A DNA stretch of 64,000 nt from a virus: IMG/VR virus record IMGVR_UViG_3300027782_000036; one strand, written 5' to 3'. This document shows, in pieces, positions 44,816 through 55,398 of the stretch. The notes below the pieces were generated by a model that saw nothing but the letters and a program-made list of their open reading frames with translations, searched no databases and was not told the DNA's origin. The first letter of the stretch is position 1, and each line of letters opens with the position of its first letter. A program made the translations under genes and the position numbers.

Positions 44816-44887
44816 ATGTGGACAAAACCAGCAGCTACTGAAATGCGCTTTGGCTTCGAAGTTACGATGTATGTAATGAACAAGTAA
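44816..44887 (+). CDS. pqqA: PQQ precursor peptide PqqA (23 aa, MWTKPAATEMRFGFEVTMYVMNK); absent from the ORF track
   Basis: Manual translation; W-x-K-P...R-x-G-F-E-V-T-x-Y with the E-x3-Y core; AAGGAG RBS; own promoter and terminator. Confidence 0.95.
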   Translation: MWTKPAATEMRFGFEVTMYVMNK

Positions 44888-46658: not shown

Positions 46659-46687
46659 TTGACAAACAGAATGATTTATTGTATAAT
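46659..46687 (+). promoter_or_regulatory. Sigma70-type early promoter
   Basis: Perfect TTGACA-17 nt-TATAAT. Confidence 0.85.
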
Positions 46688-47155: not shown

Positions 47156-48796
47156 CTATGATATTGTAGTATAACCCCAATAAACAGTTTGAGATGAACC
47201 GCTAGTGTTGTTAATTCCAAAATCAAATCTATTGGTAGTCGAACTTGCAGACACACTGCTACGAACTATGGTGTTTGCAGTGCCTATAAACTGATTAGGT
47301 ATACTAGTAAAGTCAATGGGAGTTCCACCACCATTGTAGACCCAAGCATAATGTTGACCCACAACAGGTACATTGCTATTGGTAACTGTGGCAATGGCAT
47401 TGTATGCTATAATTCCATTAGGTATATTACCACTAACCCATAGTTCATAGGTACCACTTCCTGGAACTGTAAAGCTATAAGTACCTGATCCTATAGTAAC
47501 AGTCCATGTGCCTGTAGTTTTTGTAACTGCTGATGCAGACGTTGGGCCTGTGGCACCTGTTAATCCAGTAGAACCTGAAGCGCCTTGAGTTCCTGTAGCT
47601 CCATTAGTACCTGCAACTCCAGTAGATCCACTTGCACCTTGGAAACCTGAAGCTCCTCGAATACCTGTAGAACCATTTACTCCGCTAGCCCCATTAACAC
47701 CAGTTGCTCCATTGGTTCCAGTTGTACCTGTAGCTCCGTTGTTTCCAGCAACACCACTAGCTCCTTGTATTCCACTTGCTCCGTTAATACCGGTAGCTCC
47801 ATTACTTCCAGAAGTACCAATTGCGCCTGATGCACCTTGAATACCAGTTGCACCGTTTACACCCGTAGCACCATTTGTTCCGTTATTTCCTGGCGATCCA
47901 GTTGCACCATTGACACCTATTATTCCACTAGCACCAGCAACACCGGACGCACCTTGTTGACCTTGAGTTCCACTAGCACCTATAACTCCAGTGGCACCAG
48001 CATCTCCTCCACCTGGACCGGTTGCTCCAGCAGGACCAGTAGCACCATTACCTCCACCACCTTGTGCATTTTTTGGTGTCCATTTACCTAGTGTTGAATC
48101 AAATGTTAATACTTGATCGTTTGATGGACTTTTAACACTACTATAATCTGTATCACCTAAATCATATAGCCAATAGGAACCACTACCTGGTCCTGCAATT
48201 GATACTTTACCCAACCACTGTTCAAGATATTTTAATTTGTCTTGAATTGCTTTAATATTAGGTTCAGTCTTTTTAGCAATTGGATCGGTGAAAGTATTTG
48301 TATAACTTTCTTGTTTGGTAATTTTTTCAGAAGTTACTTCGACAATATCTTTAGGTTTAGAAGGTTCAACAACAACTTCTTCTTTGACAACAGGAACTTC
48401 AATAAATTCTTCTTGTTTTTGTTCGATGATTTCAATTTTATCATCAAGTTGTTTTTTAGCTTGTGAAAGTTCTTTGAAGAAATCGCCTAATGTAACAGGT
48501 GGTTCTGATTCTTCTTTGATTTCTGGAATATAACCTTCAACAGGTATTTCTTCTATTTCTTTTTTGAGGTTAGCTAATTCAGATAAAAAGCTTGTTGTGC
48601 TTTTAGCATTTTCTTGAAGATCAACTCCAATATTCTCTAAAAACTCTTTGTTCTTTTTATCTTCTTCTTCTAATTTGACCTTTTTGCCTTCTTTTACTAC
48701 ATTGGCAAATTCAGCCATCAAAGATGCTAAATCATTTTGAGGTTGCACGATATGTTCCATCCCAATTATCTGGTTTTCCTTCTTCAAGTCTTTCAA
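47156..48796 (-). CDS. Acidic N-terminal region plus collagen-like G-X-Y repeat protein with C-terminal beta domain (start may be 48760 or 48718)
   Basis: Long GAT/GAS G-X-Y run. Confidence 0.75.
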   Translation of the reverse strand: MKDLKKENQIIGMEHIVQPQNDLASLMAEFANVVKEGKKVKLEEEDKKNKEFLENIGVDLQENAKSTTSFLSELANLKKEIEEIPVEGYIPEIKEESEPPVTLGDFFKELSQAKKQLDDKIEIIEQKQEEFIEVPVVKEEVVVEPSKPKDIVEVTSEKITKQESYTNTFTDPIAKKTEPNIKAIQDKLKYLEQWLGKVSIAGPGSGSYWLYDLGDTDYSSVKSPSNDQVLTFDSTLGKWTPKNAQGGGGNGATGPAGATGPGGGDAGATGVIGASGTQGQQGASGVAGASGIIGVNGATGSPGNNGTNGATGVNGATGIQGASGAIGTSGSNGATGINGASGIQGASGVAGNNGATGTTGTNGATGVNGASGVNGSTGIRGASGFQGASGSTGVAGTNGATGTQGASGSTGLTGATGPTSASAVTKTTGTWTVTIGSGTYSFTVPGSGTYELWVSGNIPNGIIAYNAIATVTNSNVPVVGQHYAWVYNGGGTPIDFTSIPNQFIGTANTIVRSSVSASSTTNRFDFGINNTSGSSQTVYWGYTTIS

Positions 48797-50741
48797 TCAT
48801 TTTTTCATAATATTCATGGATGGTAACTTCTGGATCATTCAATAATGTTTGTGCAACAAATATTGCTTTCTTCCAATCACCATTATAATATAAATTTAAA
48901 AATTCTTTATGACCAATTATTCTTGTTTTGCCTATAGTATATATCTTGACGCCAATTGTCTTACCTTTAACCGCTATATTGTCTAATTCAATAACATTAT
49001 AGTTATCTTTAACTAATTCGGCAGTTTTTTCACCTAATACTATTTTAACACCGTATGGTTTAGATTGACCTTCTAACCTACTTGCCAAATTGACAGAATC
49101 ACCGAGGCAAGTATAGTCGAAACGTTGTCTAGAACCCATGTTACCAACAACAACACTGCCAGTATTAATACCAAGTCCCATACCAAACGGAGGGATACCT
49201 TCTTTAGAAATTTCTTTATTAAATCCATCTAAATCTCCTAACATTTCTAGACCAGTTTTTACTGCATTGAGAGCGTGATCTTTATCATCTAATGGTGCAT
49301 TCCAAAAAGCCATCTGTGCGTCACCAATATATTTATCGAGTGTTCCATTATTATCTAAAATCTTGGAAGTCATGGCAGTCATATATCGATTCATGATTTG
49401 TGTTAAACCTTGAACATCTTTACCATAGTGTTCTGATATGGTTGTAAAACCACGAACATCTGTAAACATAATACTCAATTCTTTTGTTTCACCACCAAGT
49501 CTCAATAACTCTGGATTCTTTTGTAACTTTTCAACAAGTGCTGGTGAAAGATATGTTCCAAATTGTTTTTTGATTTGTAATTTTTGGTTTAGTTCACTTA
49601 TAAACTTAACAGTATATGCATGAGCATACACAACAGCCAAACTGAAAATAGGAAACACACAATCCACAAGATAGCTGAAATGAGTAAAGGTATAATAAGA
49701 ACAATAATATAAACCACTAATAAGAAAAACAATAGGGACAATAGCATATTTCCACCTCGATAAGAAGATAATTAAAATTGATAATAATACTACTACAAGA
49801 ATTTCTGCACCATCTAACCAATCAGGTCGAGATATACTTGTACCACTCGTTAAAGTATCTAGGACTACAGCTTGTAAATAGTGTGGATACTGTTCACCTC
49901 TAGCTGTTGCAATTGGGTTATTGAGACCACGAGCCGTAAGTCCAACGATAACGATACCACCATCAAATGATTTAGGCATCTCCACAAGTGAATGTTCAAT
50001 TGGTTTACTTGACCAGTCGACCCAAATTCTACCAATTGTATCTGTTGATATTTTGGCAAATTTAGGTATTCTAACTGCTTCGATTCCTACATCAGTAGAT
50101 TTAACTTGAAAACTTGGGTCTCCAACTGCAACACGTAAAGTTTCAAGAGATATACTTGGGTAGAGTAGGTCGTTACTTGATACAACCATAGGTATACGGC
50201 GAACAACACCATCAATTTCAGGTAAGACATTTACGACTCCAACACCAGCTGCCTTATCATTTAGTAGTTGGATGTTAGGTTGAATACCTGGATAATCAAT
50301 GGTAAAATTATGTGCAGGTGTTCCAATTTCCGAAACTCCTGGTCTAAATGCTAAAGTTTTTTGTTTCTCTGGTGCGGCTATCTGAGGTAAGATGACAGGG
50401 TGTCTAGCAAGACTATCAGCCAAGTTGGCATCACGTCCAAAGCGATCATTGTCAGGCATAAAGATGTTAAAAACAACAAGACCAGCATTACGTTGGTAAA
50501 GGTCCTCGATAATGTTTGCATATTGGCTCCTAGGAAATGGAAATTGACCAAGTCTTTCGATTGATTTATCATCAATGTTTACCACATGAACCTGCTTGGA
50601 AATAGTTTGTGGTTTACTTGTTATGAGTGTATCAAAATATCGTAGTCTAACAGATTGAACAAATGATGGATCGAATGTTCTAACACCAATTAATAATGCT
50701 AATGTAAGTAATGCAAACCATGGACTAAGTAACCTCTTCAT
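48732..50741 (-). CDS. CHASE2-domain class III adenylate cyclase
   Basis: VVNIDDKSIERLGQFPFPR and DGVVRRIP (CHASE2); TM helices; FTDVRGFT, DKYIGDAQM, DYTCLGDSVNLASRLE. Confidence 0.93.
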   Translation of the reverse strand: MKRLLSPWFALLTLALLIGVRTFDPSFVQSVRLRYFDTLITSKPQTISKQVHVVNIDDKSIERLGQFPFPRSQYANIIEDLYQRNAGLVVFNIFMPDNDRFGRDANLADSLARHPVILPQIAAPEKQKTLAFRPGVSEIGTPAHNFTIDYPGIQPNIQLLNDKAAGVGVVNVLPEIDGVVRRIPMVVSSNDLLYPSISLETLRVAVGDPSFQVKSTDVGIEAVRIPKFAKISTDTIGRIWVDWSSKPIEHSLVEMPKSFDGGIVIVGLTARGLNNPIATARGEQYPHYLQAVVLDTLTSGTSISRPDWLDGAEILVVVLLSILIIFLSRWKYAIVPIVFLISGLYYCSYYTFTHFSYLVDCVFPIFSLAVVYAHAYTVKFISELNQKLQIKKQFGTYLSPALVEKLQKNPELLRLGGETKELSIMFTDVRGFTTISEHYGKDVQGLTQIMNRYMTAMTSKILDNNGTLDKYIGDAQMAFWNAPLDDKDHALNAVKTGLEMLGDLDGFNKEISKEGIPPFGMGLGINTGSVVVGNMGSRQRFDYTCLGDSVNLASRLEGQSKPYGVKIVLGEKTAELVKDNYNVIELDNIAVKGKTIGVKIYTIGKTRIIGHKEFLNLYYNGDWKKAIFVAQTLLNDPEVTIHEYYEKMIERLEEGKPDNWDGTYRATSK

Positions 50742-50869
50742 TGTATAATTTGGGTCTTCTTGTGTTGTAGGCTTTTCTTTAGTGCCTTAAACCAAAGTTT
50801 CTTTTGTTTCTTTGCTTGGTGTCTAACGCAAGCTAGGTACATCTTACGAATTAATTTTTTAACTTTCAT
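50738..50869 (-). CDS. 43-aa basic protein; absent from the ORF track
   Basis: MKVKKLIRKMYLACVRHQAKKQKKLWFKALKKSLQHKKTQIIQ; ATGA overlaps with both neighbours. Confidence 0.7.
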   Translation of the reverse strand: MKVKKLIRKMYLACVRHQAKKQKKLWFKALKKSLQHKKTQIIQ

Positions 50870-51612
50870 TTTATCTTCTTCCAATAAATTATCTTCCATT
50901 CACCTTCATGCGTCTCAACTAAAGCTGAACATGATTCAACCCAATCTCCATCATTCATGTATATGATGTCTTTAATTACTTTTATTTCTGGAGTATGTAT
51001 ATGACCACATATAACCCCATCGTATCCTTTTTTTGCACAATAGTCTGTTATTGTCTCTTCAAACTTAAACACAAATCCTACAGCTTTCTTGACTTTATGT
51101 TTTAAAAATTGGCTGAGACTCCAATAACCAAACCCCAACTTATGTCGTATATAATTAAACTTTGTGTTTATCCATAATACTGTATCATATGCATGATCAC
51201 CCAATACAGATATCCATTTTGCCATACGAGTGATACCATCAAACATATCGCCATGAGTTATAAGAAACCTACGGCCATTGATATCAGTATATTCTGACTG
51301 ATTACATAACAATATGTTTTTACCAAGACTAAAGTAGTTTACAAATGGTCTAAGAAACTCATCATGATTACCCGTGACATAAACAACTTTTGTTCCACGT
51401 TTACTGAAACCTAATATTCTACGAATAACATTTGTGTGACTTTGTTTCCACTTCCATTTGTTTAAATGTATCTTCCAACCATCTATAATATCACCTATTA
51501 AAAATAAGTTATCACAATCATTATGCTTGAGAAAATTATTAAGTAAATCAGCCTTAGCTTCACCAGCTCCTAAATGTGTATCAGATATACAAATAGTTTT
51601 ATACTTTTTCAT
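50866..51612 (-). CDS. Calcineurin-like metallophosphoesterase (LpxH/LpxH2-like)
   Basis: SDTHLG, GDIIDGW, GNHDE, HGD, GHIH, NDGDWVES. Confidence 0.85.
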   Translation of the reverse strand: MKKYKTICISDTHLGAGEAKADLLNNFLKHNDCDNLFLIGDIIDGWKIHLNKWKWKQSHTNVIRRILGFSKRGTKVVYVTGNHDEFLRPFVNYFSLGKNILLCNQSEYTDINGRRFLITHGDMFDGITRMAKWISVLGDHAYDTVLWINTKFNYIRHKLGFGYWSLSQFLKHKVKKAVGFVFKFEETITDYCAKKGYDGVICGHIHTPEIKVIKDIIYMNDGDWVESCSALVETHEGEWKIIYWKKIK

Positions 51613-52679
51613 TAATTACCTTTTTGATTAATTGTAATTACATTTGTGGTACTATCTTGTGTTTGTATTGATGTAGAAGAACCACTTTGGTTTATATTTA
51701 TCTGATATCCTAAATCTTTATTAATTAGAATTGTGGTGTTTTGATTATTCTTTGGACGTTGAATTATCCAATAAGACTGTTTATCAAACACATAGGTTCC
51801 AGTCAATGAGTTATATCCTACTTGAAATGCGGTCAACAATTGATTATCAAAAGCATTTGTAAGATACTGTGCATCTAATAAATTAACATCCAACTCTACA
51901 AAATCTTTATACGGATCTTTATAGACCTTCGTATCTAAAGCGTTTTGATCCAATCCATTAAAATCTAATGCTGATCCAGATTTATCTTTAATATCAGATT
52001 GTATTCTTTCTAATATCTCCTTAGGAGGTTTTACAATAAGCATGTTATCAATAGCTGATTCGGACAAAAGCAAAAGCACGGGTTTCATAGGCTTTATTTC
52101 AGTTGAAGATGTAACTGTTGCTTGAAATGCTTGATTGAGTATAACTGTACCAACTTCTGTTGTTACTTCAATTGATCCAACTGTACCATCTGCGTTTGGC
52201 AACAATATAATAAGACTTTTTCCTATTTCATCGACTGTCATAGTAAATGCTGTACCACGAACGGCTACTGAAGCAGTTGGTGTATTAATAGATACGTTTT
52301 TATTATTTTCGTGTGCGATATTACCAGAAGCATAACGAACAGTTCCCATGGTAACTTTGAGTGCTAATTTACCTGCACCTTTTTTATTCGGATCATAGAC
52401 AAAATCATCTATGACTAGTTTTGAATTTTCTGTGACACGAACTTGAGTGTTATCTTCAAACGTGATGCCAACTACACCGGCACCAGTTTGAACTAAGTCA
52501 TTTGAATCTATCGGAGATTTGGGTTTAGCATCCATCGCCTGCTTATTATGCGTGATGGATGCTGACCCTTTTTGTTCAGTTACAGAACCAATTGCTGACC
52601 AACTAGTGTTGGGTGACAGAGATAGCAGAGTTAGAACCAGTGAGGTTAATAACTGCGCTATTCGAAATTGTGTTGCCAT
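51612..52679 (-). CDS. Secreted FecR-domain protein
   Basis: Signal-peptide-like N-terminus; DLVQTGAG..ITFEDNTQV...INTPTASVAVRGTAF. Confidence 0.85.
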   Translation of the reverse strand: MATQFRIAQLLTSLVLTLLSLSPNTSWSAIGSVTEQKGSASITHNKQAMDAKPKSPIDSNDLVQTGAGVVGITFEDNTQVRVTENSKLVIDDFVYDPNKKGAGKLALKVTMGTVRYASGNIAHENNKNVSINTPTASVAVRGTAFTMTVDEIGKSLIILLPNADGTVGSIEVTTEVGTVILNQAFQATVTSSTEIKPMKPVLLLLSESAIDNMLIVKPPKEILERIQSDIKDKSGSALDFNGLDQNALDTKVYKDPYKDFVELDVNLLDAQYLTNAFDNQLLTAFQVGYNSLTGTYVFDKQSYWIIQRPKNNQNTTILINKDLGYQININQSGSSTSIQTQDSTTNVITINQKGN

Positions 52680-53301
52680 CTTGAATCACTGATATTGTAT
52701 TACTGTCACCGATAACATTAGCTGAAATATTATGACCACCACCTGATAATGTACCAAAACCAGTTTGTGTAGTTGTCAATGTATTGCTATCACCTGCAAG
52801 AGTAAAATTGTTAATAGTGTAAGCACTGTTGATTGTGCTTGTGATGCTATTACTATCACCAGTCACATCTAAATTATAAAGATAATTACTAGAATTACGT
52901 AATGTACCAATGTTTAAGATAGAGTTGTTGTTAGAACCATTAAGTGAAATACCTAATGTGCCTGAACTTGTGCCAAAGTTACCATAGTTCAATAATGTAG
53001 AGTTGCTGTTACCAAGTTGACTAATTGTTGCGTCAGAGTTTCCACCAATAAAGTTACCTAAGATACTATTGTTCATACCATCTTGTGTAATAGTCAAGAA
53101 CATACTGTTACCATCAATCGTAAATGGATTACCAGTCGTTGTATTTGTATCACCAACGTTGTTGTTAGATCCAGTTTGTGTAATAGTTACAGCTGATTGA
53201 TCAGCGTTTGTCTGATCGATATAGACTGAGTTACCTCCGTCTGCCCAAACACTAACTGCTAATAACAAACCCATCACAAAAGTGATAAGTTTACTTTTCA
53301 T
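52603..53301 (-). CDS. Secreted curlin-like (CsgA/CsgB-like) repeat protein
   Basis: Signal peptide ending VWA; repeated [IT]xQxGxxN / GDSN units; start moved to ATG 53301 after AAGGAG. Confidence 0.72.
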   Translation of the reverse strand: MKSKLITFVMGLLLAVSVWADGGNSVYIDQTNADQSAVTITQTGSNNNVGDTNTTTGNPFTIDGNSMFLTITQDGMNNSILGNFIGGNSDATISQLGNSNSTLLNYGNFGTSSGTLGISLNGSNNNSILNIGTLRNSSNYLYNLDVTGDSNSITSTINSAYTINNFTLAGDSNTLTTTQTGFGTLSGGGHNISANVIGDSNTISVIQDGNTISNSAVINLTGSNSAISVTQH

Positions 53302-54085
53302 TACTTTTCTCCTTAAATTGCCACATTCCTTTTTTTTCACCTTGAATAATCAATTGTTCAACGGCCAAGTCTGTGGCTAACTTGATACAGTGAATACTTG
53401 CTTCAGTTTGTGATAACCCAATTTCTGATTCAAAGTTTTTAGTGCCGTTATCATAAAATTTAAATATTGCCACAGCAGCAGTATAACTAAGTAACGTTTT
53501 TTGAGTATTCACAGTTAATAATACTTCACCAGTTTGCACACTAATTGCTCTTATACTAACTGTTACGACATCTTCTTGATATTGTGTATCTGGTCCTATT
53601 CCTAACCATCGAACACCAATACCACCAGTTCTTATATTACTGTCATAAGAAACTATGCCACCTTCAATTAACATACCTGCATAGAGTATAGGACTTATAT
53701 TCTTCTTATCATTCACTTCTTCTCTTGCAGATCGAATGAGTTGTCTTTCTTTAAGTAAGTTATCAAGACCAACTCGTTCTACAATTCTAAACCATTTACC
53801 ATCACCGGCTTCTTGTAATGATTTAATTAATACTGTTTCACCACCTTGAGTAACAGCAGTTGAGAACTTAGCTATATTACCAGAATCTTTTCTTTGGCCA
53901 GTTTTATCACCAAAATTATAAACAGCAACTACGACCTTACCTTGTTTAGGTTCAGGTAATTGAACCTTCTTTGGTTTTACGGTTGATTGTGTTTCTAATA
54001 CTTCAGGATCTTTTTTAACAACATTCATAGGTCCACCACACGCAGACAAAAGAACACATATTAATATTATGAATATATTCTTCAT
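53291..54085 (-). CDS. csgG: Curli secretion channel lipoprotein CsgG
   Basis: Lipobox LSAC; AVYNFGDKTGQRK, FSTAVTQG, VERVGLDNLLKERQLIR, EGGIVSYDSN. Confidence 0.93.
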   Translation of the reverse strand: MKNIFIILICVLLSACGGPMNVVKKDPEVLETQSTVKPKKVQLPEPKQGKVVVAVYNFGDKTGQRKDSGNIAKFSTAVTQGGETVLIKSLQEAGDGKWFRIVERVGLDNLLKERQLIRSAREEVNDKKNISPILYAGMLIEGGIVSYDSNIRTGGIGVRWLGIGPDTQYQEDVVTVSIRAISVQTGEVLLTVNTQKTLLSYTAAVAIFKFYDNGTKNFESEIGLSQTEASIHCIKLATDLAVEQLIIQGEKKGMWQFKEKSNEK

Positions 54086-54525
54086 TAGAATTTTAATGTT
54101 CCAATTGGTATTTCAACTTGAGTGATTGTACCATCAGCAGCTGTAACTGTTAATGATATTGAATCGGCTGTCTTTGTATATTGAATAGTATTACCTTCAA
54201 TAGTAACAGTTCCACTATTCTGTGGATTCTCACCGAACAAGTTGTTGATTAATTGTGTAGATAGTTGAGCATAAACTCTGCTCTCAAAGTTGTTTAAGAA
54301 CTTTTGTAAGTTCGTATTTTTAGCAGCTGCCGCTGCATCTTTTGCTGCTTGGAGTTTAGCCTCTTCAATTGCTTTCTTACGACTACTCTCTGTATTCTCT
54401 ATCGTTTGAACGTGAGAACTATATCCTATACCAGAAAAAGAAGGAGATTTAAATTGGAATACTTGCTCAGCATAGACGTTACTTGTTAGTATCGTCAGTA
54501 TTAGAATTCTTATTATTTTTATCAT
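54085..54525 (-). CDS. csgF: Curli assembly factor CsgF
   Basis: Signal peptide followed by FQFKSPSFSG; FESRVYAQLS; adjacent to csgG. Confidence 0.85.
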   Translation of the reverse strand: MIKIIRILILTILTSNVYAEQVFQFKSPSFSGIGYSSHVQTIENTESSRKKAIEEAKLQAAKDAAAAAKNTNLQKFLNNFESRVYAQLSTQLINNLFGENPQNSGTVTIEGNTIQYTKTADSISLTVTAADGTITQVEIPIGTLKF

Positions 54526-54757
54526 CTTTGATTTCTCGCATCATTAATACAACGTTAAGTTTTTGATTTAATCTAATCAAATCATTATCTAACATTCTAA
54601 TACGATCTATCAAAGCAATTAATACTGAATTTACTTCACTTAAAACTGGTTTAACTTCTTTTGTAGCCCACACCCAAACATAATATACAAAATAGCCACC
54701 ACCACAAGCAGCTACAATTGGGAAACCATATTTGTTTATTAAACTTACTAAATCCAT
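54479..54757 (-). CDS. Small membrane protein (YvrJ-like GFPI motif), paralog B
   Basis: KYGFPIVAACGGGYFV TM segment plus coiled coil. Confidence 0.65.
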   Translation of the reverse strand: MDLVSLINKYGFPIVAACGGGYFVYYVWVWATKEVKPVLSEVNSVLIALIDRIRMLDNDLIRLNQKLNVVLMMREIKDDKNNKNSNTDDTNK

Positions 54758-55069
54758 TTAAATATTATTTTCGTTTTTATTGTTTAAAAAATAATTAGCG
54801 GGAAATATACTATGATCACCTTTTTCCCATTGGATATAAATTGAATCTCCTTCACCATTGAAGCAAGCTTCCATTATTTCACCATCTTTACGAACAGCTT
54901 TAGCTGACCATGGGAATTTGTCTTTATATTTTTTTAATTCACATGGTTGATTTGAAATCCAAATTGTAACATTATCGTTGAAATTAAAATGTAACATCTT
55001 TACCGGTTCTTCAGCATAAGATATTAATGTTATGAATATTAAAAATAAACTAATCTTTGCGAGCATCAT
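54758..55069 (-). CDS. Small secreted protein with two Cys
   Basis: Signal peptide ending SYA; start moved to ATG 55069 (or 55066). Confidence 0.6.
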   Translation of the reverse strand: MMLAKISLFLIFITLISYAEEPVKMLHFNFNDNVTIWISNQPCELKKYKDKFPWSAKAVRKDGEIMEACFNGEGDSIYIQWEKGDHSIFPANYFLNNKNENNI

Positions 55070-55328
55070 TTTTCCCATCTGCACGAGCAATACGGTCAAT
55101 GTCTGGTTTAACACCTAATGCGCTACTCATAAGTGTATCGATACGAATAATATCATGATTCATGGTCTTGACACGATTATCCAAAGCTGATATAATTGCA
55201 CTTAATGATTTAATTGAGCTCATAACACCAGCTAAAATAAATTTAAGAGTAAGAAAAACAAAATAACCGCCAGCACAGGCGGATGCAATGGGAAAACCCA
55301 CTTCAGCAATTAGTTTGAAGATGTCCAT
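55050..55328 (-). CDS. Small membrane protein (YvrJ-like GFPI motif), paralog A
   Basis: EVGFPIASACAGGYFV TM segment plus coiled coil. Confidence 0.65.
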   Translation of the reverse strand: MDIFKLIAEVGFPIASACAGGYFVFLTLKFILAGVMSSIKSLSAIISALDNRVKTMNHDIIRIDTLMSSALGVKPDIDRIARADGKNDARKD

Positions 55329-55360
55329 ATTGATGTCCGTAGCTTAATGAATTACTAAAG

Positions 55361-55368
55361 TATTTATG
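55361..55368 (-). promoter_or_regulatory. T4-type late promoter (CATAAATA) for the curli/cyclase operon
   Basis: TATTTATG on +, reading CATAAATA on -, about 33 nt upstream of the first ATG. Confidence 0.7.
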
Positions 55369-55369
55369 C

Positions 55370-55398
55370 TTGACATGCATCAAAGGATGATATATAAT
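55370..55398 (+). promoter_or_regulatory. Sigma70-type promoter for the gp43 region
   Basis: TTGACA-17 nt-TATAAT. Confidence 0.82.

Follow-up and report, generated by a model that had tools for sequence, protein, structure and literature searches.

A curli-type gene block with a FecR-fold protein and a CHASE2 adenylate cyclase in an aquatic T4-like phage: core genes and passengers

Curli genes have previously been described in phages. The curli operon of pelagimyophages was reported by Zaragoza-Solas et al. in 2020 (PMC7029224), and the cluster was given by Wittmers et al. in 2022 as a "histidine kinase", CsgF, CsgG, CsgA/B, FecR, a second CsgA/B and an adenylate cyclase (PMC9599517). This type VIII secretion system (T8SS) cluster was found by the same authors in SAR11 podophages and myophages, an alphaproteobacterial origin was inferred and expression at sea was reported (PMC9599517). 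CsgGF of Methylophilales phage Melnitz was modeled by Buchholz et al., who proposed a role in lysis timing and left FecR and the cyclase unmentioned (PMC9004378). Here a related block is analyzed, consisting of eleven tightly packed open reading frames (ORFs) on the minus strand (47156-55328) of a 64-kb stretch of viral DNA (64,000 nucleotides of IMG/VR record IMGVR_UViG_3300027782_000036; hereafter, the window). The linkage of FecR and cyclase genes to phage curli genes, offered as new in an earlier reading of this DNA (the original prediction), had already been published in 2022 (PMC9599517). The window carries a new lineage of the block, whose core is separated here from its passenger genes.

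Annotations of Pelagibacter phage HTVC008M (gp011-019) and of Melnitz (gp97-104) show this gene order as well. The pelagiphage T8SS agrees with the block in gene content and order (two small proteins, CsgF, CsgG, curlin, FecR, a variable slot and the cyclase), likewise belongs to a T4-like phage and likewise lacks CsgE, CsgC and CsgD. Identity between the proteins of the block and those of HTVC008M and Melnitz is only 39-65%. The slot is filled here by an LpxH-like phosphoesterase and a 43-aa peptide, which replace the second curlin-repeat gene of the isolates, and an extra secreted protein is encoded between the two small membrane genes, unlike in the isolates. The published labels, by which the small proteins are a "histidine kinase" and FecR an iron regulator, with CHASE2 unmentioned, do not fit the findings given below.

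The likeness of the block to canonical curli (csgBAC-csgDEFG) lies in the CsgG lipoprotein, CsgF and a curlin-repeat subunit, whereas the phage block lacks CsgE, CsgC and CsgD and has FecR, the cyclase and the small membrane genes in addition. No Pfam family for CsgE, CsgC or CsgD was detected among the eleven ORFs, with the unassigned ORFs examined to E values of up to 5. The order csgF-csgG-curlin is also that of alphaproteobacterial curli loci. A CHASE2 membrane sensor encoded beside an exported FecR-domain protein, as in the phage, is known from CyaD1/CyaD2/CyaK and SMc02177 of Sinorhizobium meliloti and from Burkholderia, in which FecR and CHASE2-kinase genes form operons (PMC5192318). 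Unlike the phage block, they lack a pore through which curlin could be secreted.

A co-inherited core of seven genes

The cyclase was used to scan IMG/VR, which returned at least 596 related contigs, and the best 80 of these were searched by tblastn for all eleven proteins. CsgG served as the anchor of a second scan, which was centered on HTVC008M and of which the best 80 matches were used. More than 590 contigs were matched in each scan, and both co-occurrence samples consist of the 80 best matches, which are myophage contigs. Seven genes travel together in the best 80 loci, namely those for the small membrane proteins memA and memB, CsgF, CsgG, the curlin-repeat protein, the FecR-fold protein and the cyclase. 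Among the cyclase-anchored loci with at least 6 kb of upstream sequence, five or six of the six core partners are held by 47 of 50, and the three that seem to deviate have a rearranged or inverted layout or run into a contig end. Both FecR and the cyclase were found in all 25 CsgG-anchored loci with at least 5.5 kb of downstream sequence, and the small membrane genes and csgF are present in 71 of 72 CsgG-anchored loci. The exceptions to co-occurrence (L016, L023, L054 and L068) are all accounted for by inverted layouts or contig ends.

Independent assortment of csgG and csgF from FecR and the cyclase, the outcome named in the original prediction as counting against a linked system, was seen in neither the cyclase-anchored nor the CsgG-anchored sampling. 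The core is one co-inherited unit made up of two membrane paralogs, CsgF, CsgG, curlin, the FecR-fold protein and the CHASE2 cyclase. Judged from their sequences, the core genes are intact, with motifs and export signals kept.

The block had been presented originally as an eleven-gene unit, and this view stands for the seven genes conserved together. It does not stand for the 118-aa secreted protein, the metallophosphoesterase, the 43-aa peptide and the collagen-like gene, which are lineage-specific additions and are classed here as passengers. Homologs of the 118-aa protein occur in 3 of the 80 loci, and those of the 43-aa peptide are confined to the closest clade; no family match was obtained for either in Pfam and PHROG searches. 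The phosphoesterase is found in 9 of the 80 loci, in 2 of which it lies elsewhere than between FecR and the cyclase. No homolog of the collagen-like gene was found in any of the 80 related loci. Its inclusion in the module is therefore not upheld, and the gene looks like a tail-fiber gene.

The FecR stop codon and the cyclase start codon share a 4-nt ATGA overlap in 19 of 56 loci; otherwise the two genes are separated by the variable slot. This junction was observed to be an insertion hot spot (loci L005-L082) with about ten unrelated types of cargo. Depending on the phage, the slot contains a second curlin-repeat gene, a phosphoesterase, DUF4337, a HAD-like phosphatase, a RimK ATP-grasp ligase, a GT4 glycosyltransferase, a non-specific endonuclease, an Asp/Asn beta-hydroxylase, a Gcw_chp protein or others.

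One locus (L084, RGCF01000015.1) is labeled as a Bacteroidetes metagenome-assembled genome and holds memA, memB, csgF, csgG, curlin, FecR, a second curlin and the cyclase (54% identity). It was considered as a bacterial carrier of the whole module and rejected, as it is probably a phage contig that was binned with a bacterial genome.

The core is preceded by a late-type promoter motif (Table 1). The motif NATAAATA appears no more than 120 nt upstream of the memA homolog in 47 of 56 related loci, and CTAAATA is present in several of the loci that lack it there. The same motif precedes the sheath, portal-region and scaffold genes in this window. The block probably belongs to the late program of the phage. 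Three perfect (12 of 12) sigma-70 consensus promoters (TTGACA, 17 nt, TATAAT) were also observed on the plus strand, at 55168-55196, 55370-55398 and 46659-46687. One of them is within memA and antisense to it, and another adjoins the block's late promoter in divergent orientation and is directed to the polymerase region.

Layout and setting of the block

The features of the block are collected in Table 1. All eleven ORFs lie where the original prediction had placed them, and its description of eleven minus-strand genes forming the only inverted block is borne out: no non-nested minus-strand ORF of at least 100 aa was found outside the block in the 64 kb, and the sign of the GC skew flips across it. 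The gene names assigned at that stage agree with Pfam for the collagen-like protein, the CHASE2 cyclase, the metallophosphoesterase, FecR, curlin, CsgG and CsgF. TAATG or ATGA overlaps are found at the csgF/csgG, FecR/metallophosphoesterase, metallophosphoesterase/peptide and peptide/cyclase junctions. The length first read for the small peptide is correct because its ATG overlaps the stop codon of the metallophosphoesterase gene. Alternative start codons are probable for three genes: an ATG near 55075 for the 118-aa ORF, which gives a product of about 100 aa, the ATG at 53301 for the curlin-repeat gene and an ATG near 48721 for the collagen-like gene. The parts had been described as spanning the outer membrane, periplasm and inner membrane, which fits the predicted lipobox, signal peptides and cyclase topology; the export signals match the predicted locations, and all three layers are covered.

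Table 1. Coordinates of the block and its promoter motif in the window
Feature	Position	Strand	Evidence or remark
Late-type promoter motif CATAAATA	55361..55368	-	33 nt upstream of memA, the first gene
memA, 92-aa small membrane protein, core, paralog of memB	55050..55328	-	phrog_18771, E 1.5e-33
Secreted protein, accessory, 118-aa ORF	54758..55114	-	Signal peptide
memB, 92-aa small membrane protein, core	54479..54757	-	phrog_18771, E 1.4e-33
CsgF homolog	54085..54525	-	Pfam CsgF, E 8.8e-17, full profile; signal peptide
CsgG lipoprotein, predicted outer-membrane channel	53291..54085	-	Pfam CsgG, E 4.5e-51; lipobox LSAC
Curlin-repeat secreted protein	52603..53340	-	Pfam Curlin_rpt, E 5.8e-9; signal peptide from Met14
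FecR-fold protein, predicted periplasmic, 355 aa	51612..52679	-	Pfam FecR, E 1e-8; signal peptide; AlphaFold2 model
LpxH-like metallophosphoesterase, accessory cargo	50866..51612	-	Pfam Metallophos, E 5e-13; LpxH similarity
43-aa very basic peptide, accessory, clade-specific	50738..50869	-	ATGA-coupled at both ends
Receptor-type class III adenylate cyclase	48732..50741	-	Pfam CHASE2, E 3e-39, and Guanylate_cyc, E 3e-21; topology
Collagen-like fiber protein, neighbor outside the module	47156..48796	-	Pfam Collagen, E 6e-22; tail-fiber PHROGs

The window was identified with PHROG profiles as part of a T4-like myophage, with a large terminase, tail sheath, portal, scaffold, major head protein, helicases and DNA polymerase. 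The DNA polymerase shares no more than 53% identity with those of cyanophages. The carrier of the block is an aquatic T4-like phage.

Two further observations concern the window at large. The G+C content is 0.42-0.45 between positions 2000 and 10000 and 0.30-0.36 elsewhere, and four very large plus-strand ORFs (705, 213, 702 and 1374 aa) are located in this region. A 23-codon ORF at 44816-44887 on the plus strand encodes, by translation only, a product with a Glu-x-x-x-Tyr core; this core and its flanking residues presumably resemble PqqA, the precursor peptide of pyrroloquinoline quinone.

Proteins of the block

The genes csgF and csgG and the curlin-repeat gene appear in that order, followed downstream by FecR and then by the cyclase. 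CsgG aligns over its full length with CsgG of Escherichia coli (E 3e-50); relative to that protein, the Phe of the constriction loop is retained and the Asn is replaced by Lys. Signal peptides are carried by CsgF, curlin, the 118-aa protein and FecR. A sequence search of CsgF against solved structures returned no match.

The FecR protein was modeled with AlphaFold2 from 34 sequences, with a predicted local distance difference test score of 79. The signal peptide is followed by a confident beta domain (residues 31-200), a low-confidence linker of about 80 residues with conserved Leu and Asn positions (205-285) and a confident small beta domain (288-352). In this model, residues 58-216 match the periplasmic (C-terminal) signaling domain of PupR with a Z of 15.5. 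The periplasmic fold is thus shared with the FecR/PupR anti-sigma regulators, in which this domain is in contact with an outer-membrane protein on its periplasmic side. In the phage protein, however, no cytoplasmic anti-sigma domain and no transmembrane helix were found, the beta domain following directly after the signal peptide, and the phage block holds no TonB-dependent transducer or extracytoplasmic function sigma factor and nothing related to iron.

A second structural match was obtained for residues 27-122, which align with the "cell surface anchoring domain" of MpIBP (5ix9) with a Z of 7.2, a root-mean-square deviation of 2.1 over 73 residues and 29% identity. Foldseek gave a TM-score of 0.73 and 36% identity for the same structure, and a sequence-profile search found nothing. 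The MpIBP domain is the periplasmic plug by which giant adhesins exported by type I secretion are held in the TolC pore (PMC5550230; LapA preprint 10.1101/198937). In the retained adhesins LapA (with LapEBC) of Pseudomonas fluorescens and MpIBP of Marinomonas primoryensis, a folded N-terminal beta domain that is kept periplasmic under an outer-membrane channel is followed by a flexible stretch, and a similar arrangement may hold for the phage protein. The phage system differs in that the channel is CsgG and not TolC with an ABC pump, and in that FecR is a 355-aa protein with a Sec signal peptide, no ABC/HlyD/TolC system being encoded in the block. The adhesins are governed by cyclic di-GMP through LapD and LapG, whereas the phage messenger would be cyclic AMP (cAMP) from the CHASE2 cyclase.

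A curlin-like motif was detected in 39 of 55 FecR tails, against a background of 0.08 per 50 aa. The corresponding hhalign comparison gave a P of 0.0036 and a probability of 9%. No Pfam curlin repeat was found in the tail, curlin proteins were missed by a hidden Markov model of the tail and FecR proteins were missed by that of curlin. The tail of FecR may be curlin-like, and the resemblance is weak.

The predicted topology of the cyclase is a transmembrane helix, a periplasmic CHASE2 domain, three further transmembrane helices, the catalytic domain and a conserved C-terminal tail. The Pfam CHASE2 match covers residues 13-323, with hydrophobic segments at residues 4-22 and across 309-373. The best solved relatives are CyaB and the cyanobacterial class III adenylate cyclases. 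An alignment with CyaB and 13 phage homologs indicated that D428, K470, D474, T544, N551 and R555 are kept; among the 13 homologs D428, K470, D474 and R555 are invariant and N551 is nearly so, and many CHASE2 positions are likewise invariant or nearly so. The two metal-binding Asp residues, the substrate-binding Lys plus Thr/Asp and the transition-state Asn and Arg of class III enzymes are all present. The protein probably has adenylate cyclase activity, with its sensor domain in the periplasm.

The cyclase of Melnitz (L001) has Ser in the column of the transition-state Asn (N551) and Asp at the second substrate position, and its activity may differ from that of the other phage cyclases. A conserved tail after the catalytic domain was also noted at 48732-48920 on the minus strand (about residues 610-669). 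It ends with GTYRATSK, could be assigned to no family, is common to the phage and alphaproteobacterial homologs and is missing in HTVC008M.

The small membrane proteins memA and memB are paralogs of one phage family, phrog_18771, and their homologs were seen only in module-bearing phages. They are homologous to gp011/012 of HTVC008M and gp97/98 of Melnitz, with identities of 47-65%. A Pfam search gave no kinase or other domain (best match YvrJ, E 0.16), and the closest clusters in the ESM Atlas are unnamed and exclusively viral; the label "histidine kinase" was accordingly rejected. Their N-termini are weakly hydrophobic and rich in Gly and Ala.

These two proteins are the most conserved parts of the module, with mean pairwise identities of 0.76 for memA and 0.63 for memB. 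Their identities co-vary more with those of the cyclase (rho 0.34-0.44) than with those of the adjacent csgF (0.09-0.19), and in several loci the two genes are relocated beside the cyclase. The pattern of co-variation and conservation thus divides the module into two evolutionary units, a fast and exposed one (CsgF, CsgG, curlin and FecR; rho 0.67-0.76) and a slow one at the inner membrane (memA, memB and the cyclase).

The phosphoesterase scored 47 bits with the NCBIfam LpxH model, under the equivalog cutoff of 134, and matched LpxH in the PDB with an E of 5e-4. The top 25 fold matches of its AlphaFold2 model (mean confidence score 74) are all LpxH, with E values of about 1e-10 and a best value of 5e-11. 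The cAMP phosphodiesterase Rv0805 ranks 39-40 in the same fold search with an E of about 7e-6, five orders weaker than LpxH. Homologs are also present in phages without the module, namely Mosig and Synechococcus phage S-SRM01. A possible role in switching the signal off had been proposed originally; an assignment as cAMP phosphodiesterase is not favored for a protein that resembles LpxH in sequence and fold, is one of about ten variable cargo types in the slot and occurs independently of the module. On its sequence and model, the protein is best read as envelope-lipid cargo. The collagen-like protein matches tail-fiber PHROGs, and no signal peptide was found in it.

Bacterial relatives and candidate mechanisms

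A profile of the cyclase was compared with 185,579 species genomes. Full-length homologs with identities of 34-39% were found in Alphaproteobacteria, and 79 loci were inspected. None of these 79 cyclase-anchored loci contains CsgG, CsgF, curlin, memA or memB. In the 44 loci with full flanks, a FecR-domain protein is encoded in 31 (at least 1000 aa long in 26 of them), an adjacent pair of ABC and HlyD genes in 16, and one or the other in 38. The recurrence of FecR beside the nearest bacterial relatives bears out the statement in the original prediction that bacterial CHASE2 cyclases occur with FecR-domain proteins. In many loci the neighbor is a giant protein (1000-3000 aa) that carries a FecR domain at its N-terminus, cadherin, Big_9 or laminin-G domains and an RTX or serralysin-type C-terminus. 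These FecR-headed proteins adjoin a type I secretion ABC transporter and an HlyD adaptor. The head of a giant protein of Bradyrhizobium matches 5ix9 by sequence (E 6.7e-5), and its core motifs are common to the phage FecR domain. A literature search for CHASE2 together with type I secretion turned up no paper in the library used.

In a Thalassospira locus (L144, 7016-9948), the genes immediately upstream of that for the CHASE2 cyclase encode a TPR protein and a FecR-domain protein of 486 aa. Proteins of these kinds act with the CyaD1 cascade of S. meliloti (TPR protein SMb20495 and FecR-domain protein SMc02177).

Curli loci were examined in 401 sampled alphaproteobacterial genomes, and neither FecR nor the cyclase was found within 10 kb of csgF-csgG-curlin in any of the 7 best CsgG loci. 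CsgG is absent from four whole genomes that hold the cyclase. A bacterial ancestor with the whole module was thus not found in the 79 cyclase loci, the four whole genomes or the 7 curli loci. Because the bacterial cyclase loci are without curli genes and the bacterial curli loci are without FecR and cyclase, the phage module looks like a chimera of an alphaproteobacterial csgF-csgG-curlin locus and a unit in which an exported protein with a FecR head is paired with a CHASE2 cyclase, a unit that goes with type I secretion in bacteria.

The following mechanism is proposed. Late in infection, the CsgG-CsgF channel would be installed by the phage in the outer membrane of the host, and the curlin-repeat protein would be exported through it to the cell surface. 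The FecR-fold protein would stay in the periplasm beneath the channel, as does the same fold in the FecR/PupR regulators and in the plug of the retained adhesins. It would report the state of the pore or fiber to the periplasmic CHASE2 domain, and the cyclase would then set cAMP in the infected cell. Such a relay from pore to cyclase is plausible because the FecR-fold head, in phage and bacterial proteins, resembles the periplasmic plug of retained adhesins. It is put forward tentatively, as a quite possible reading; the readings by which the block makes fibers only, takes over the host through cAMP or times lysis rank behind it.

Several points weigh against this relay. The match of FecR to the plug domain 5ix9 is of middling strength (Z 7.2). 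The identities of FecR co-vary with those of CsgF, CsgG and curlin (rho 0.67-0.72; 0.71 for CsgG) and much less with those of CHASE2 (0.41), and FecR variants at 47% and 88% identity are paired with near-identical cyclases. A tight, specific interface between FecR and CHASE2 is therefore not indicated by the sequences. In S. meliloti, the one bacterial case with an experiment, the FecR-domain neighbor of CyaD1 was dispensable for signal perception and behaves as a cAMP-regulated target (PMC5498481), and the podophage versions of the module often lack the cyclase (PMC9599517). No cNMP_binding domain, as expected of a phage-encoded cAMP receptor, was found in five phage genomes (96-100% complete) that carry the module.

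A more specific form of the relay, itself unlikely, would make the FecR-fold protein a tether whose head lies under CsgG and whose tail reaches or joins the fiber, so that fiber load or contact would be passed to CHASE2 and on to cAMP.

The best-placed alternative, though a somewhat unlikely one, is that the block is a fiber factory without a relay. Amyloid-like fibers would clump host cells ("sibling capture") or block superinfection, and FecR and the cyclase would be regulators that are only loosely associated and not physically linked to the pore, as viewed in the earlier studies (PMC7029224, PMC9599517). All members of a minimal set (CsgF, CsgG and a curlin-repeat protein) are present, podophage versions often do without the cyclase (PMC9599517) and FecR co-varies with the T8SS genes rather than CHASE2. 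A loose association is at odds, however, with the ATGA overlap of FecR and cyclase in 19 of 56 loci and with co-occurrence in 25 of 25 and 47 of 50 loci in the sampled myophage contigs. All of the genes are served by a single late promoter, and control of operon transcription by the cyclase through cAMP is therefore hardly possible. FecR, for its part, has no anti-sigma or transmembrane part through which transcription could be controlled.

It is distinctly unlikely that the host is taken over by cAMP in response to a periplasmic cue unrelated to the fiber, with FecR acting only to gate or cap CsgG in place of the missing CsgE. The lack of CsgE from the block, the tracking of CsgG identities by those of FecR (rho 0.71) and the separate, slowly evolving unit formed by the cyclase and small membrane proteins are consistent with this view. 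The nearest bacterial cyclases, however, keep a FecR-domain partner in genomes without CsgG, and the pairing of FecR with the cyclase is therefore older than the curli pore and independent of it.

A lysis-timing device, in which the CsgG channel would act like a pinholin or secretin and make the envelope permeable as infection ends (PMC9004378), with the small membrane proteins as holin-like partners, is quite improbable. The late-type promoter and the weakly hydrophobic, Gly/Ala-rich N-termini of the small membrane proteins would suit such a device, and the hypothesis is already published (PMC9004378). CsgG, however, is located in the outer and not the inner membrane, and the related pelagimyophage Mosig has neither the module nor the small membrane genes, yet must lyse its host. 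The curlin protein, FecR and the sensor cyclase are also left unexplained. That the proteins are structural components of the virion is very improbable: the promoter is of the late type and a collagen-like fiber gene adjoins the block, but the Sec signal peptides, lipobox and four-helix membrane topology indicate the host envelope, and conservation of the block does not extend to the collagen-like gene.

As judged from the two scans, the curli block is abundant among the viral contigs sampled, and its labels can now be corrected: the small proteins have no kinase domain, FecR has no features of an iron regulator and the cyclase carries a CHASE2 sensor. The parallel with the retained adhesins provides a concrete, testable model for the block. 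If the relay from pore to cyclase is true, surface structures built by a phage would be tied to second-messenger control in the host, and a hint at the ligand of CHASE2 would be provided. If the tether is also true, it would account for the grouping of a FecR-headed giant adhesin, a type I secretion pump and a CHASE2 cyclase in alphaproteobacterial loci. It would then be the first candidate input for the orphan CHASE2 domain, and phages would have rebuilt a bacterial contact sensor on another pore.

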